A DNA stretch of 64,000 nt from an uncultured Bdellovibrionales bacterium (GTDB taxonomy: Bacteria; Patescibacteriota; Minisyncoccia; Moranbacterales; UBA1568). Positions 7,400-14,897 of the stretch are shown one piece after another. Location of the stretch: contig CAYNMD010000001.1 of NCBI GenBank assembly GCA_964398485.1, positions 5,072 through 69,071 of the forward strand, given 5' to 3'. The notes below the pieces were generated by a model, which did not search any database, was not told the DNA's origin, and saw nothing but the letters and a program-made list of their open reading frames with translations. The translations under genes and the position numbers were made by a program. Positions within the stretch are counted from its first letter, which is position 1, and each line of letters starts with the position of its first letter.

Positions 7400-7741
7400 A
7401 TGAAAACGAGTCGTCAAGGAAAAGATGAGGAGGTAGTGATGACTTCTGGAGGGAGGTGTCCTAAGCGTGCCCTAAAAATTTTTGGTGACTTCCAGACACT
7501 CTCTATTGTTGAGGTACTTGGTCAGGGCGAACTCCGATACTGCGCTCTTCAAAGAGCACTTGGTGATATGAACCCAGTGACACTTACCAAGAGGCTCAAA
7601 ATGCTCGAAGGCGAAGGGATTATTGGACGACGGACGGAGGCAATGGATAAACTCTCAGTTTCTTATTACTTGGAGGAGAAGGGGAAGCGGATGCTCCCGA
7701 TACTCCGAAATATGAGGGATTTTGCGATGCAGTATCTCTAA
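7400..7741 (+). CDS. HxlR-family winged-helix transcriptional regulator
   Basis: CP...AL.I.GD.W...I...L..G..RY..L.R.L......LT.RLK.LE motif; divergent to the nitroreductase gene. Confidence 0.8.
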   Translation: MKTSRQGKDEEVVMTSGGRCPKRALKIFGDFQTLSIVEVLGQGELRYCALQRALGDMNPVTLTKRLKMLEGEGIIGRRTEAMDKLSVSYYLEEKGKRMLPILRNMRDFAMQYL

Positions 7742-7822
7742 AAAGGGGTGTTTGGGCGCTAGAGAGGTTGCTCCACTTGATTCTTTTTTGAGGATATTGT
7801 AGCATTCAGGGTGCTTTTTAAC

Positions 7823-7896
7823 GGGCGATTAGCTCAGGTGGTTAGAGCGCGTCACTGATAATGACGAGGTCCCAAGTTCGAGTCTTGGATCGCCCA
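7823..7896 (+). tRNA. tRNA-Ile (anticodon GAT)
   Basis: Cloverleaf folded by hand: acceptor GGGCGAT/ATCGCCC, anticodon stem CGTCA/TGACG, loop CTGATAA, T-arm CCAAG-TTCGAGT-CTTGG; no encoded CCA. Confidence 0.85.
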
Positions 7897-7928
7897 CATC
7901 TGGAAGGCAGCGTCCAGAAAGTATATAC

Positions 7929-8002
7929 AGCGGGGTAGAGCAGTCTGGCAGCTCGTCTGGCTCATAACCAGAAGGTCGGTGGTTCAAATCCACCCCCCGC
8001 AA
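7929..8002 (+). tRNA. initiator tRNA-fMet (anticodon CAT)
   Basis: Near-identical architecture to bacterial initiator tRNA (GCGGGG..GAGCAG..CTCATAA..GGTTCAAATCC..CCCCCGCAA); 1:72 mismatch (A x A), A11:U24 in the D-stem. Confidence 0.8.
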
Positions 8003-8072
8003 CAAACTTCGCATTCAGCAGGTGACAGATACTGAGGCATCTTCTCTTGCTTGGCTAAGTTGGGTATAATTT

Positions 8073-8146
8073 GCCAGGGTAGCTCAGTTGGTTAGAGCAC
8101 GGGACTCATAAGCCCGGGGTCGAGAGTTCGAATCTCTCCCCTGGTA
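8073..8146 (+). tRNA. tRNA with CAT anticodon (elongator Met or Ile-lysidine type), atypical
   Basis: Acceptor GCCAGGG/CCCTGGT with G1.U72 wobble, D-arm GCTC-AGTTGGTTA-GAGC, loop CTCATAA, anticodon stem CGGGA/GCCCG with an A31.G39 mismatch, T-arm GAGAG-TTCGAAT-CTCTC. Confidence 0.6.
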
Positions 8147-8162
8147 CTGGGCGAAAATTGAA

Positions 8163-8226
8163 TATCACGGGGGCGTACCCACCCGAACGACTGAGAGCCG
8201 TTCAGTCGGGCGGGGCTCAGCTGGCT
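8163..8226 (+). repeat. partial duplicate of the tRNA-Asp 5' region (ATATNACGGGGGCGTA...GCTCAGCTGG) interrupted by a 37-nt hairpin-forming insert
   Basis: Direct comparison with the start of the intact tRNA-Asp at 8457-8482: about 25 nt identical if the insert CCCACCCGAACGACTGAGAGCCGTTCAGTCGGGCGGG is removed. Confidence 0.6.
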
Positions 8227-8472
8227 ATGTACACTGTTTATGTTTTACAAGATAATCGGGGAAGGTTATACAAGGGCATGACCAATAACCTGGTTCGACG
8301 ACTTGCAGAACATAAAGGGGGTACAACAAAAACTACGCGTTCTATGAAGGATCTGCGTGTTGTATACTCCGAAGAGCATCCCGACAGAGTGTCAGCAAGA
8401 AAGCGAGAGATGTATTTAAAGTCTGCTGCTGGGAGGAGGTTTTTGAAGAAAATTTTATATACGGGGGCGTAG
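8227..8472 (+). CDS. GIY-YIG nuclease superfamily protein (UPF0213/YhbQ-like)
   Basis: YTVYVLQDNRGRLYKGMTNNLVRRLAEHK GIY-YIG motif; ATG at 8227 preferred over the tool's TTG at 8158; stop codon TAG overlaps the first 10 nt of tRNA-Asp. Confidence 0.7.
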   Translation: MYTVYVLQDNRGRLYKGMTNNLVRRLAEHKGGTTKTTRSMKDLRVVYSEEHPDRVSARKREMYLKSAAGRRFLKKILYTGA

Positions 8473-8539
8473 CTCAGCTGGTTAGAGCGACTGCCTGTCA
8501 CGCAGTAGGTCGCCGGTTCGAGTCCGGTCGTCCCCGCCA
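8463..8539 (+). tRNA. tRNA-Asp (anticodon GTC), CCA encoded
   Basis: Acceptor GGGGGCG/CGTCCCC (one G.U), D-arm GCTC-AGCTGGTTA-GAGC, anticodon stem ACTGC/GCAGT, loop CTGTCAC, T-arm GCCGG-TTCGAGT-CCGGT, discriminator G + CCA. Confidence 0.85.
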
Positions 8540-8690
8540 TTCGGGATAAGCAGGTACATTAGTATCTGTTTTTCCTTTTGTAGAAGCCTCAAACACCGGT
8601 TCGAGGGTACTCTTTTTCACCATGAGACTCTCCTCACTTTTACCAATCAGTAAAAAGATTCTATACTATTAAAAACTAATAATTTCAACT

Positions 8691-9341
8691 ATGGAACATA
8701 AACAAAGAGGTGCATTATATGTTGGCTTAGGTCTAGTTCTCATCTTTGGGCTAACCCTAGCTGTTACTTTTTATCTTGATCGGACGACTCCTTCTGAGAC
8801 ATCTACTAATAGCCAGAATCTTCCTCAATCAAAAGAAGGGCCTCGAGAGAGCAATCCTTGGATGAGTTTTGATAGCAAAAAAGACACGGGTCTAGCTTTA
8901 GGCGTGCAATTCAATTATCCAGCGGCTTGGCTTCAGAATGGGAGTCGCGATAGCGGTACCGTTTCAGTTGTCCCATTTTTTGATAAAGACAAATACTCAA
9001 AGAAATGTGAGACCGTAAGTAATGGATCTGTAAACTGTCCTGAGACGGGGTTAGTGGCACAAATTATTGTAAGCAACTCCTCTTACGCTGCTCCAAAGAC
9101 TACTTACAAAGATCAGAAAAATGAAAAAATTACTATCGGTGGACAAGTGGGTGTTAAAATTTCAGGCGTAGTAAAATCAGAAAGTCTCAGCCATGTTGCT
9201 TCGGTAGGGAAAAAAGAAACTCGAGTAATTGTCATGGGATTAGACAACCAGCAATATGAGTTTGTTATGATTACTGAAAACTCTGCACAAGATGAAATTT
9301 TCAATGAAATTATCAAAACTACAACGTTTGGAAATAAGTAA
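8691..9341 (+). CDS. hypothetical secreted/membrane-anchored protein
   Basis: N-terminal TM/signal (LYVGLGLVLIFGLTLAVTFYL); Ser/Thr-rich; AT-rich relative to neighbours. Confidence 0.5.
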   Translation: MEHKQRGALYVGLGLVLIFGLTLAVTFYLDRTTPSETSTNSQNLPQSKEGPRESNPWMSFDSKKDTGLALGVQFNYPAAWLQNGSRDSGTVSVVPFFDKDKYSKKCETVSNGSVNCPETGLVAQIIVSNSSYAAPKTTYKDQKNEKITIGGQVGVKISGVVKSESLSHVASVGKKETRVIVMGLDNQQYEFVMITENSAQDEIFNEIIKTTTFGNK

Positions 9342-14806: not shown

Positions 14807-14823
14807 ACTATGATGGAGAAAGG

Positions 14824-14897
14824 TGGACCGTATCGGATTCGAACCGATGACCCCCGCTTTGCAAAAGCGGTGCTCTAGCCAACTGAGCTAACGGCCC
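14824..14897 (-). tRNA. tRNA-Ala (anticodon TGC)
   Basis: Reverse complement GGGCCGTTAGCTCAGTTGGCTAGAGCACCGCTTTTGCAAAGCGGGGGTCATCGGTTCGAATCCGATACGGTCCA; G3.U70 Ala identity pair; anticodon loop TTTGCAA. Confidence 0.85.

Follow-up and report, generated by a model that had tools for sequence, protein, structure and literature searches.

The window analysed here, a 64-kb stretch of DNA, carries a small GIY-YIG nuclease gene between tRNA-Met and tRNA-Asp that runs into the latter (Table 1). The tRNA-Asp was identified by ARAGORN and Rfam (70.1 bits). Reading of the sequence places the ATG of the open reading frame (ORF) at 8227 and its TAG at 8470-8472, on nt 8-10 of the tRNA, such that tRNA-Asp nt 1-10 encode the last two codons of the ORF together with its stop. 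Upstream of the ORF a repeat search found the 5' end of the tRNA a second time: ACGGGGGCGTA at 8167-8177 recurs at 8461-8471, and GCTCAGCTGG at 8215-8224 recurs at 8473-8482. The repeated stretch comprises 2 nt of flank and tRNA nt 1-19, the two tRNA 5' copies being identical, and is interrupted upstream by the 37-nt CCCACCCGAACGACTGAGAGCCGTTCAGTCGGGCGGG at 8178-8214. A random-sequence estimate puts the chance of a colinear 11-mer and 10-mer match within about 160 nt at roughly 1e-8, and recurrence of the layout in 73/81 independent homologous loci, described below, is far stronger support than these chance odds.

Table 1. Features of the tRNA-Asp locus, in window coordinates.
Feature	Position	Strand	Basis
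tRNA-Met(CAT), upstream neighbour	8073..8147	+	tRNA scans, empty-allele comparison
Native spacer, tRNA-Met to original tRNA-Asp start	8148..8168	+	homologous to L127 empty-allele spacer
Displaced pseudo-5' tRNA-Asp nt 1-9 (GGGGGCGTA), at the original tRNA position	8169..8177	+	
Hairpin (HP), 37-nt GC-rich bulged palindrome (CCCACCCG...CGGGCGGG), between tRNA nt 9 and 10	8178..8214	.	
Displaced pseudo-5' tRNA-Asp nt 10-19 (GCTCAGCTGG)	8215..8224	+	
GIY-YIG nuclease ORF, 81 aa, UPF0213/YhbQ/Slx1-like branch	8227..8472	+	
Intact tRNA-Asp(GTC), 5' end shares 10 nt with ORF	8463..8539	+	
Terminator-like hairpin and T run, 3' of tRNA-Asp	8548..8571	+	

An earlier sequence-only reading of this DNA had described the nesting of a GIY-YIG ORF with tRNA-Asp, which ARAGORN, Rfam, Pfam and the repeat search bear out; the position it gave for the TAG, within tRNA nt 8-10, agrees with ours, and the 37-nt imperfect hairpin it saw interrupting the upstream copy does fold as a bulged hairpin. 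It had put the repeat at about 25 nt, made up of 6 nt of flank and 19 nt of gene. The gene part holds, but only 2 nt of the flank match exactly.

We found no second GIY-YIG gene or hairpin in the 64-kb window, where the 37-mer is present in a single copy and tRNA-Ala at 14822-14897 is unoccupied. Rfam was searched with E values up to 10 across 7700-8700 and at gathering level over the full 64 kb; the searches returned five tRNAs only, and neither the hairpin nor the leader matched a family. The tRNA is contiguous in Rfam and gave no intron match; the ORF is thus not intron-embedded, as for a free-standing homing endonuclease gene. A weak repeat, CCGGTTCGAG at 8596-8605, lies 3' of tRNA-Asp and could be a pseudo-3' remnant, but a 10-mer match is within chance.

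A promoter scan revealed no sigma-70-like site immediately before the ORF, and a terminator-like hairpin is found only after tRNA-Asp; co-transcription of the ORF with the tRNA operon is therefore likely. From the sequence, tRNA-Ile, two tRNA-Met, the ORF and tRNA-Asp, in this order, likely form one transcription unit ending at that terminator.

The GIY-YIG protein

The ORF product matches the Pfam GIY-YIG family PF01541 at 47.2 bits (cut-off 22.6; E 2.7e-12), with an alignment that spans profile positions 1-73 of 78. Residues Y5, Y15, R25, H29 and E61, which we take to be catalytic by analogy with I-TevI and UvrC, are invariant among 31 sequences. An AF2 model (pLDDT 90.7) has the element order E-E-H-E-H-H, and agrees with the three-stranded sheet and flanking helices of the GIY-YIG fold. 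Foldseek matched the model to 1ZG2, Slx1 (6SEH; TMq 0.66, rmsd 2.4), 1YWL and the UvrC N-terminal domain, the best fold matches being UPF0213 (1ZG2) and Slx1 (6SEH), and a profile search against the PDB found 1YWL (E 4.6e-9) and 1ZG2 (E 3.4e-7) and no other match. By sequence we assign the product to the UPF0213/COG2827 (YhbQ-YazA-like) subfamily as a single-domain protein of 81 aa; an NCBIfam search assigned no family. The ORF is under strong purifying selection (dN/dS 0.06-0.11). An Slx1 orthologue was considered and rejected, as the protein stops after the GIY-YIG core and has no C-terminal RING/PHD-type zinc finger.

The 81-aa protein is a catalytic core only, with no separate DNA-binding or recognition domain of the kind found in I-TevI, I-BmoI and the Seg proteins. 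The missing domain lowers the case for a classical GIY-YIG homing enzyme, not the case for a protein that works like one. Homologues exist in phages and plasmids (about 37-43% identity); at the two phage loci inspected the homologue lies between protein genes, with no adjoining tRNA.

Empty sites and recurrence across Patescibacteria

Flanking protein genes show no synteny in relatives, and we therefore sought empty sites via the tRNA sequence itself. Among 98 non-redundant contigs that share this tRNA-Asp, no GIY-YIG-like ORF lies upstream in 80, and the other 18 have one. In a close relative, L127, tRNA-Met, a homologous spacer and tRNA-Asp are contiguous, and blastn joins window positions 7795-8177 to 8461-8530; compared with this empty allele the window has 283 extra nt and an 11-nt repeat. 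Clean empty sites were found in L127, L145, L147 and L158. Close relatives are thus polymorphic for presence of the ORF at the same site, as for a free-standing homing endonuclease gene.

The arrangement is not peculiar to tRNA-Asp. Our homologue set comprised 81 loci from many Patescibacteria lineages, and at 76 of them a tRNA on the same strand lies at the end of the ORF. Nine tRNA types are occupied: Ala, Thr, Asp, Phe, Val, Ile, Arg, Lys and Met. The ORF stop coincides with tRNA nt 8-10 in 48 of the 81 loci and lies deeper inside the tRNA in 14. A pseudo-5' copy of the adjoining tRNA, at least 15 nt long, is found upstream in 73/81 loci; it begins at tRNA nt 1 in 56 of these, and its end varies from tRNA nt 15 to 46. 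ORFs 82% identical occur at different tRNA types, their similarity limited to the ORF, with both flanking tRNA pieces derived from the target. Several copies and tandem arrays also occur (L076). The D-arm motif does not discriminate targeted from non-targeted tRNAs, TAGCTC being present in 58/75 of the former and 113/233 of the others. We found no published description of the arrangement in the literature searched, which covers few subscription journals, and this looks like a widespread selfish element, apparently undescribed.

The window 37-mer folds as a bulged hairpin, of -10.9 kcal/mol with DNA parameters, and does so as RNA too; the RNA fold of 8148-8232 does not stand out from those of shuffled sequences (z -1.5). 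We therefore judged the hairpin by its conservation across the family rather than by its energy. A palindrome family, CCCGCCCG...CGGGCGGG, splits nearly all pseudo-5' tRNA copies: at least one hairpin is present in 66 of the 73 loci with such a copy. Its members are found almost only in pseudo-tRNA pieces beside these GIY-YIG ORFs, 73/97 lying upstream of the ORF at a distance of at most 100 nt. Canonical hairpins were likewise confined to pseudo-tRNA pieces in 666 kb of independent sequence. The D-stem borders after tRNA position 9, 13 or 21 (sites 9-10, 13-14 and 21-22) host 61/68 hairpins, and no single rule fits the minor sites 35-36, 32-33 and 52-53. Hairpins occur in both orientations, which correlate with the site (19 A versus 2 B at 9-10; 0 A versus 6 B at 13-14), and are inserted without target duplication. 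The hairpin ends 10-29 nt before the ATG in 58/78 cases, and at the 21-22 site its 3' arm followed by GAGC reads as a GGAG-like motif that the hairpin could sequester. The pseudo-tRNA and hairpin region is more conserved than ORF third positions in 8/9 close pairs. A comparison of sense and antisense stability and G-U counts revealed no asymmetry (28 versus 27) that would indicate selection on the hairpin at the RNA level.

Some loci record the replacement or decay of parts of the arrangement. At three (L041, L029, L054) the pseudo-5' acceptor is unlike the live tRNA, and a matching native pseudo-3' remnant lies downstream of a foreign live tRNA; we read these sequences as co-conversion or replacement of the tRNA along with the ORF. 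L068 has undergone serial invasions, the ORF is truncated in L112, and footprints without an ORF were found at L005, L006, L140, L092, L134 and L164.

The sequence-only reading had suggested a mobile or homing GIY-YIG cassette that regenerated the 5' end of tRNA-Asp. The empty-site alleles that it proposed to look for are the majority, the upstream fragment is conserved as a repeat, and both support the suggestion. Its other proposal, a leader co-transcribed with the tRNA operon, stands insofar as co-transcription is likely too, but is no exclusive alternative to a mobile origin. The many tRNA types, the conserved hairpin with preferred insertion points and whole-tRNA replacement lay beyond its view.

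Origin of the arrangement

We consider it probable that 8169-8539 represents a copy of a selfish element, free-standing and of homing type, that occupies the 5' ends of tRNA genes in Patescibacteria. The ORF and a fresh tRNA 5' part (at some loci a whole foreign tRNA) sit inside a former plain tRNA-Asp gene, and the native 5' end, nt 1-19, is left at its original place, split by a conserved palindrome at the 9-10 border of the D-stem. The nuclease would break a tRNA gene that is still empty, at the conserved D-arm or close to it, and repair from an occupied allele would copy the cassette in; with the tRNA sequence on either side as portable homology, its spread among genomes that have no flanks in common would be explained. 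The hairpin in the left copy would destroy both the target site and the long direct repeat, and so would shield the element from self-cleavage and deletion, with the two short tRNA pieces still able to anneal; this role of the hairpin, like the chemistry of insertion, is what we infer. Because the live tRNA keeps an intact D-arm, the immunity of the occupied allele is left unexplained. Nor does simple homology-driven homing explain similarity of the ORF alone between tRNA types, with target-derived flanks, which needs either rare illegitimate insertion with target duplication or gene conversion from ORF to ORF. Also against this reading are the variable end of the pseudo-5' copy, the minor hairpin sites that follow no single rule, and a protein reduced to its catalytic domain, unlike the characterised homing enzymes I-TevI and SegB.

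The ORF would be transcribed with the tRNA operon. As its stop codon lies inside the tRNA, processing of tRNA-Asp by RNase P would cut the stop off the ORF mRNA; full-length nuclease might then come only from the unprocessed precursor, keeping expression low. The basis of this RNase P and non-stop idea is the gene layout.

The same ORF-only likeness, with flanks derived from the target, speaks for a transposon-like origin, which we nevertheless think unlikely. An Slx1-type structure-selective nuclease would cut tRNA-gene DNA folded into stem-loops, for example in the strand displaced during transcription, at helix borders; the ORF would be pasted in, duplicating a long stretch of the target site (tRNA nt 1..X), and the same enzyme would insert the hairpin, as a small partner element, at borders of the D-stem. 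This would suit a right junction at tRNA +1, hairpin sites at the ends of D-stem strands (9-10, 13-14, 21-22), hairpin orientation that tracks the site, hairpin insertion without target duplication, a protein without a DNA-binding domain, and a high-scoring fold match to Slx1 bound to branched DNA (6SEH). However, X is not fixed, some hairpin sites lie away from helix borders, and we know of no prokaryotic GIY-YIG transposase. Gene conversion between paralogous ORFs in one genome also gives ORF-only similarity, and the whole foreign tRNAs that accompany the ORF in L041, L029 and L054 fit repair-mediated copying better. It is possible, if doubtful, that the minimal GIY-YIG protein acts with the conserved bistable palindrome as a structure-guided mobile system of a new kind, one that reads folded tRNA-gene DNA or the palindrome and not sequence. 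By cutting at the helix borders tRNA +1, 9-10, 13-14 and 21-22, such a system would insert the ORF and duplicate a long part of the target, would insert the hairpin to break the site, and would lead to essential tRNA genes being replaced horizontally and serially across Patescibacteria.

Strong purifying selection on the ORF, likely co-transcription, and pseudo-tRNA and hairpin conservation above the third-position level would also be compatible with a domesticated host gene, as would the regular distance from hairpin to ATG and the possibly sequestered GGAG-like motif at the 21-22 site. Nuclease and tRNA-like hairpin leader would then be a regulated part of the tRNA operon, with the nuclease, for example, a tRNA or DNA quality-control factor, and the pseudo-tRNA and hairpin an RNA leader controlling stability or translation. 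We regard this as very improbable given the patchy presence of the ORF (18/98 contigs with the same tRNA), its occurrence at many tRNA types, in several copies and in tandem arrays (L076), the truncated copies and the footprints, the replacement by foreign tRNAs, the two hairpin orientations without sense/antisense pairing asymmetry (28 versus 27), and the lack of an Rfam family match. Still further from likely, to the point of being scarcely credible, is a remnant in which the GIY-YIG gene is cargo left over from a lost tRNA intron or from a larger island or prophage that an integrase had placed in tRNA-Asp. Integration classically takes place at tRNA genes, part of the tRNA being duplicated in the process. 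In Patescibacteria, tRNA-Asp commonly contains a group I intron (PMC13011429). Yet the entire difference from the empty allele is 283 nt and the 11-nt repeat, there is no integrase, the tRNA 5' part and not the 3' part is duplicated, and the same compact layout recurs at more than 70 loci. An insert of about 0.3 kb with one ORF and a 5' duplication contradicts an integrase-mediated island or prophage, and a group I intron in the tRNA is ruled out by an uninterrupted tRNA without an Rfam intron match (E up to 10 in 7700-8700).

A selfish homing-type element, if that is what the locus holds, would give a biological role, selfish and associated with tRNA genes, to some of the tiny GIY-YIG proteins that make up the large UPF0213/COG2827 family, which has solved structures and no known function. 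It would represent a compact mobile-element strategy in which a universally conserved RNA gene is both target and portable homology, and in which essential tRNA genes are therefore overwritten by foreign alleles (L041, L029, L054); the element looks able even to swap tRNA genes between lineages. It would also account for the origin of pseudo-tRNA fragments and GC-rich palindromes in the tRNA clusters of streamlined Patescibacteria genomes, where ORFs extended upstream through the pseudo-tRNA and hairpin are a recurrent annotation artefact. The stop codon inside the tRNA suggests coupling of tRNA processing to nuclease expression, and a nuclease of 9 kDa whose DNA partner is small and defined could be of enzymological interest if its specificity is structural.

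Comparison with known systems

The protein resembles UPF0213/COG2827 members such as E. faecalis EF2693 (1YWL) and B. halodurans BH0048 (1ZG2), single GIY-YIG domains of 80-100 aa. [quoted passage not shown] REP/RAYT and IS200/IS605-type elements likewise combine a single nuclease gene with short, imperfect, GC-rich palindromes, and their hairpins lie beside a short motif without target duplication. Their likeness to our hairpin is offered as a lead only: those enzymes are HUH (Y1) transposases with hairpins genome-wide, whereas here the nuclease is GIY-YIG and hairpins keep to pseudo-tRNA pieces. Unlike the window protein, which is the GIY-YIG core only, Slx1 possesses a further zinc-finger domain and works with a partner, Slx4 (PMC7017083).

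In CPR bacteria, rRNA genes contain GIY-YIG-encoding non-intron insertion sequences, which tend to lie at the top or base of stem-loops (PMC11270868). They share with our locus the organism group, the nuclease superfamily, a structural-RNA gene as host and the lack of intron features, but are sparse, lie inside rRNA genes and are not obviously spreading by homing, and their description does not mention tRNA (PMC11270868). SegB of phage T4 is likewise a free-standing GIY-YIG nuclease, encoded outside introns among tRNA genes; a conserved tRNA motif forms part of its recognition site, and it passes, along with the tRNA genes next to it, to relatives without it (PMC2330249). In contrast to the 81-aa window protein of the UPF0213/Slx1-like branch, SegB is multi-domain and recognises the T-psi-C motif; it is phage-borne, not on a cellular chromosome, and its gene is not fused to a tRNA and has neither a pseudo-tRNA copy nor a hairpin element.

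The arrangement is also reminiscent of the mobile endonuclease ORFs (mORFs) of fungal mitochondria, which move together with a replacement gene end and have produced gene hybrids in Allomyces atp6 and in Glomus atp6, atp9, cox2 and nad3 (PMC3630166). There too the native gene end is displaced and survives as a remnant that is no longer used, the part that replaces it can be foreign, and presence differs between close relatives (PMC3630166). Most mORFs encode LAGLIDADG enzymes and they replace the 3' (C-terminal) end of protein genes, whereas here the 5' end of a tRNA gene is replaced, the tRNA supplies the stop codon of the ORF, and a conserved palindrome lies in the remnant. The duplicated target end and displaced, unused native end of the mORF type are thus found in mirror image, at 73/81 loci.

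The GIY-YIG gene and its adjoining tRNA

The window's ORF product matches Pfam GIY-YIG at 47.2 bits (cut-off 22.6), and its TAG stop is nt 8-10 of tRNA-Asp. The start of this tRNA is duplicated upstream of the ATG: a repeat search found ACGGGGGCGTA at 8167-8177 again at 8461-8471, and GCTCAGCTGG at 8215-8224 again at 8473-8482, jointly amounting to tRNA-Asp nt 1-19 and two flank bases. Within this displaced pseudo-5' copy a 37-nt bulged palindrome (8178-8214), present once in the window, separates nt 9 from nt 10. The sequence-only reading had described the locus correctly overall, except that it claimed six matching flank bases where there are two. Further on, CCGGTTCGAG at 8596-8605, 57 nt downstream of tRNA-Asp, is identical to the tRNA-Asp T-arm (8513-8522) and may be a decayed pseudo-3' remnant; a 10-mer match is within chance.

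Features of the window locus and free-standing phage homologues
Feature	Position	Strand	Context
tRNA-Ile	7823-7897	+	tRNA cluster
tRNA-Met	7929-8003	+	tRNA cluster
tRNA-Met (second)	8073-8147	+	tRNA cluster
GIY-YIG ORF	ATG 8227 to TAG 8470-8472	+	between second tRNA-Met and tRNA-Asp; 81 aa
tRNA-Asp	8463-8539	+	tRNA cluster
L204, Rhizobium phage RHph_Y65	107572-107832		free-standing homologue
L205, Ralstonia phage RP13	94471-94665		free-standing homologue, unannotated

A word-indexed search returned 154 protein relatives, nearly all from Patescibacteria (Moranii-, Paceibacteria, Minisyncoccia, Nomura-, Doudna-, Uhr-, Kazan and other lineages), and profile matches at E up to 1e-10 comprised 2111 clusters (50% clustering). 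We scanned 80 genome loci (57-80% identity) with ARAGORN, giving 81 non-redundant loci with that of the window. A same-strand tRNA lies within -45 to +130 nt of the ORF stop in 76 of the 81, and many tRNA types are used: Ala (20), Thr (17), Asp (16), Phe (7), Val (6), Ile (5), Arg (2), Lys (1), Met (1) and one suppressor-like. The stop codon is U8-A9-G10 of the tRNA in 48 loci, lies deeper within the tRNA in 14 where the ORF continues past nt 8-10, and is the ORF's own TAA or TAG, 2-30 nt ahead of the tRNA, in 11. The conserved Phe codon mostly stands 14, 17, 20, 23 or 26 nt from tRNA +1, and the frame that reads TAG at nt 8-10 is retained in 56/76. A pseudo-5' copy spanning 15 nt or more of the adjoining tRNA occurs in the 170 nt upstream of the ATG at 73/81 loci; these copies start at tRNA nt 1 in 56 of the 73, are usually 95-100% identical to the live tRNA, and end variably between nt 15 and 46. 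The layout of ORF, pseudo-5' copy and tRNA is a family-wide design.

Several further arrangements were seen. The suppressor-like tRNA (locus L061, 2730-2807) was called by ARAGORN as a "tRNA-Stop" with anticodon tta, specifying a UAA-suppressor-like tRNA; this may be a miscall or a genuinely unusual tRNA. Locus L076 (745-2400) carries four GIY-YIG ORFs in tandem, in two pairs of 57% and 39% identity to the query; after each ORF of the 57% pair (1778-2056, 2114-2392) stand a hairpin and the 3' part of tRNA-Met, not a whole tRNA. ORFs of more distant GIY-YIG subfamilies (33-50% identity or profile-only) likewise terminate at tRNA genes or shortly ahead of them, upstream of tRNA-Asp (L088/L115/L122/L135, L109, L196, L203) and elsewhere (L006 1353-1622; L081 1895-2143; L037 1914-2171), so the tRNA link is wider than this subfamily. 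A recurrent annotation artefact affects such ORFs: public gene calls often begin them too far upstream, so that the pseudo-tRNA and hairpin are translated (for example ...GAYPPERLRAVQSGGAQL...). It was found in the public entries P0002 (102 aa) and P0004 (111 aa) and in many representatives 100-120 aa long; the equivalent ORF in the window is 8158-8472.

Insertion, replacement and decay

Protein-gene synteny around the locus is not conserved in relatives, and we therefore scanned metagenome contigs with the exact 49-nt 5' half of the window tRNA-Asp. Among 98 non-redundant contigs with enough upstream sequence, 18 had a GIY-YIG-like ORF, whatever its subfamily, in the 450 nt ahead of the tRNA, and the other 80 had none. 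The sequence-only reading had proposed looking for genomes that lack the gene at the tRNA-Met/tRNA-Asp junction, and contig L127 is one: there, a spacer homologous to 8148-8168 of the window joins tRNA-Met to tRNA-Asp. Its blastn alignment covers window 7795-8177 and then 8461-8530; the window thus carries 283 extra bases and an 11-nt repeat. The alignment places the original tRNA start at the pseudo copy, so that the native 5' end was kept in place and the insert is the ORF with a new 5' end. Other clean empty sites are L145, L147/L179 and L158/L160.

Some loci preserve the replacement of a whole tRNA gene. In L041 the pseudo-5' acceptor is GCCAGCG and that of the live tRNA-Thr is GCCGGAG; the native 3' part (...CGCTGGC) matching the pseudo-5' copy lies directly downstream of the live tRNA, dotted with three or four more hairpins of the same kind. 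In the related L029 a third allele, GCCACCC, has become the live one, with remnants of both earlier alleles on either side, and L054 repeats the pattern. These and similar remnants indicate that cassettes can import a whole tRNA gene, overwriting the resident, repeatedly. In L068 and L053 the order is ORF, pseudo-5' copy with hairpin, live tRNA; L031 has the reciprocal outcome, with intact tRNA, ORF and a decayed hairpin-bearing copy.

Decay states also occur. The ORF is truncated in L112, and three relatives have ORF-less footprints ahead of tRNA-Met (L005 2125-2215, L006 1746-1843, L140 1288-1390), consisting of a pseudo-5' copy (CCAGGGTA), a hairpin, GCTCAG and about 30 nt before the intact tRNA-Met; no such footprint precedes the window tRNA-Met at 8073 (compare 8004-8072). 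ORF-less pseudo-5'-Asp pieces lie ahead of tRNA-Asp in L092, L134 and L164, with other hairpins in the latter two.

Nearest-neighbour ORFs adjoin the same tRNA type in 34/81 cases, against 15.5% expected by chance. ORFs 82% identical were found at different tRNAs (Thr and Phe), the similarity being limited to the stretch from about 17 nt before the ATG through the base before tRNA +1. A lone ORF may enter a new tRNA with target duplication, or gene conversion may homogenise ORFs at different loci within one genome.

A palindrome at D-stem borders

The pseudo-5' copies are broken by one to three hairpins of one palindrome family in 66/73 cases. The outer arms are CCCGCCCG/CGGGCGGG, the length is 26-53 nt, and the median is 13 bp; the inner stems are varied yet complementary (ACTGA/TCAGT, TACCG/CGGTA, ACCGA/TCGGT). 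Of 97 hairpins in the 5-kb loci, 73 lie within 100 nt ahead of the ORF, the remainder mostly in other pseudo-tRNA pieces, and the hairpin ends 10-29 nt ahead of the ATG in 58/78. In an independent 666 kb of contigs, canonical hairpins were likewise confined to pseudo-tRNA fragments. Insertion falls after tRNA position 9, 13 or 21 (standard numbering), the ends of D-stem strands, in 61/68, and no target duplication was found at these insertions. Both orientations occur and correlate with site: 19 A and 2 B at 9|10, 0 A and 6 B at 13|14, 17 A and 10 B at 21|22. Sense and antisense folding are equal (28 versus 27 of 72), which gives no indication of RNA selection on one strand; the hairpin behaves as a DNA palindrome. 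Pseudo-5' copy and hairpin are conserved above ORF third positions in 8/9 close pairs (92% versus 51% between the window and L004), which argues that they are a working part of the element, not junk.

In 8178-8214 and all hairpins compared, the arms are block-swapped rather than perfectly palindromic, with a left arm CCCG-CCCG-AACG-ACTG and a right arm CGTT-CAGT-CGGG-CGGG. Two inner stems can thus form, each excluding the other; in L006, L029, L053 and L057, CCTG as the left-arm variant and CAGG as the right-arm variant occur together in swapped register. Shorter GC-rich palindromes (TCCGCCAGCCGGCGGA, GGCCGACG..GTCGGCC, TCCCGATCG..CATCGGGA) also gather in pseudo-tRNA pieces (L029 2349-2420; L111, L134 and L164 upstream of tRNA-Asp; L104 1100-1330; L200), suggesting that several hairpin families share this habit. 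Pseudo copies of tRNA-Thr(TGT) in L040 (2470-2495) and L041 (2868-2897) have a hairpin between anticodon nt 35 and 36, the position at which group I introns are reported to sit preferentially in tRNAs of Patescibacteria (PMC13011429).

Nuclease, mechanism and known systems

Purifying selection on the ORF is strong (dN/dS 0.06-0.11 where dS is measurable). Y5, Y15, R25, H29 and E61 are invariant and the nuclease is, by sequence, catalytically intact. A PDB profile search matched solely the UPF0213 structures 1YWL and 1ZG2; the same two structures are matched by the AF2 model (pLDDT 90.7), as are the nuclease domain of Slx1 (6SEH; TMq 0.66, rmsd 2.4 A, 34% identity) and the N-terminal domain of UvrC. 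The 81-aa protein has no additional DNA-binding domain. Rhizobium jumbo phages and Ralstonia phage RP13 have homologues of about 40% identity. At both phage loci inspected the gene has protein genes as its neighbours, the typical setting of a free-standing homing gene, and no adjoining tRNA.

The interpretation as a mobile cassette, already offered by the sequence-only reading, is supported by insertion versus empty alleles, tRNA replacement and decay products, and we regard the finding as real. Selection on the ORF, tRNA replacement and decay products are read as marks of a selfish life cycle. We suggest that the nuclease cleaves unoccupied tRNA genes in or near the D-arm, and that repair copies the cassette, the tRNA sequences flanking it serving as portable homology. 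The hairpin would then break the leftover target and the direct repeat, leaving two short tRNA pieces still able to anneal. Co-transcription of ORF and tRNA is likely: a promoter scan gave no promoter-like site immediately ahead of the ORF, and just one terminator-like hairpin was found, at 8548-8571 after tRNA-Asp. From the gene layout and textbook RNase P and tmRNA biology, RNase P cutting at 8463 would remove the stop codon and yield a non-stop mRNA, and full-length nuclease would be made only from unprocessed precursor.

A full-text literature search found no published description of the ORF, pseudo-tRNA and hairpin arrangement, and a recent survey of Patescibacteria tRNA introns nowhere mentions GIY-YIG (PMC13011429). 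Non-intron insertions encoding GIY-YIG proteins are known from CPR rRNA genes (PMC11270868). The chance that nuclease and hairpin act together by a structure-guided mechanism so far undescribed is not negligible. We class the element, as a variant, with free-standing homing-type endonuclease elements. In its working it can be likened to T4 SegB, a GIY-YIG homing enzyme that is encoded within a tRNA cluster and has a conserved tRNA motif in its recognition site (PMC2330249), and to fungal mitochondrial mORFs, which bring a replacement gene end and displace the native one (PMC3630166). Unlike these, it resides in cellular chromosomes and relies on a minimal UPF0213/Slx1-like nuclease; the part it replaces is the 5' end of tRNA genes, its stop codon is borrowed from tRNA U8-A9-G10, and the displaced copy bears a conserved palindrome at fixed positions.
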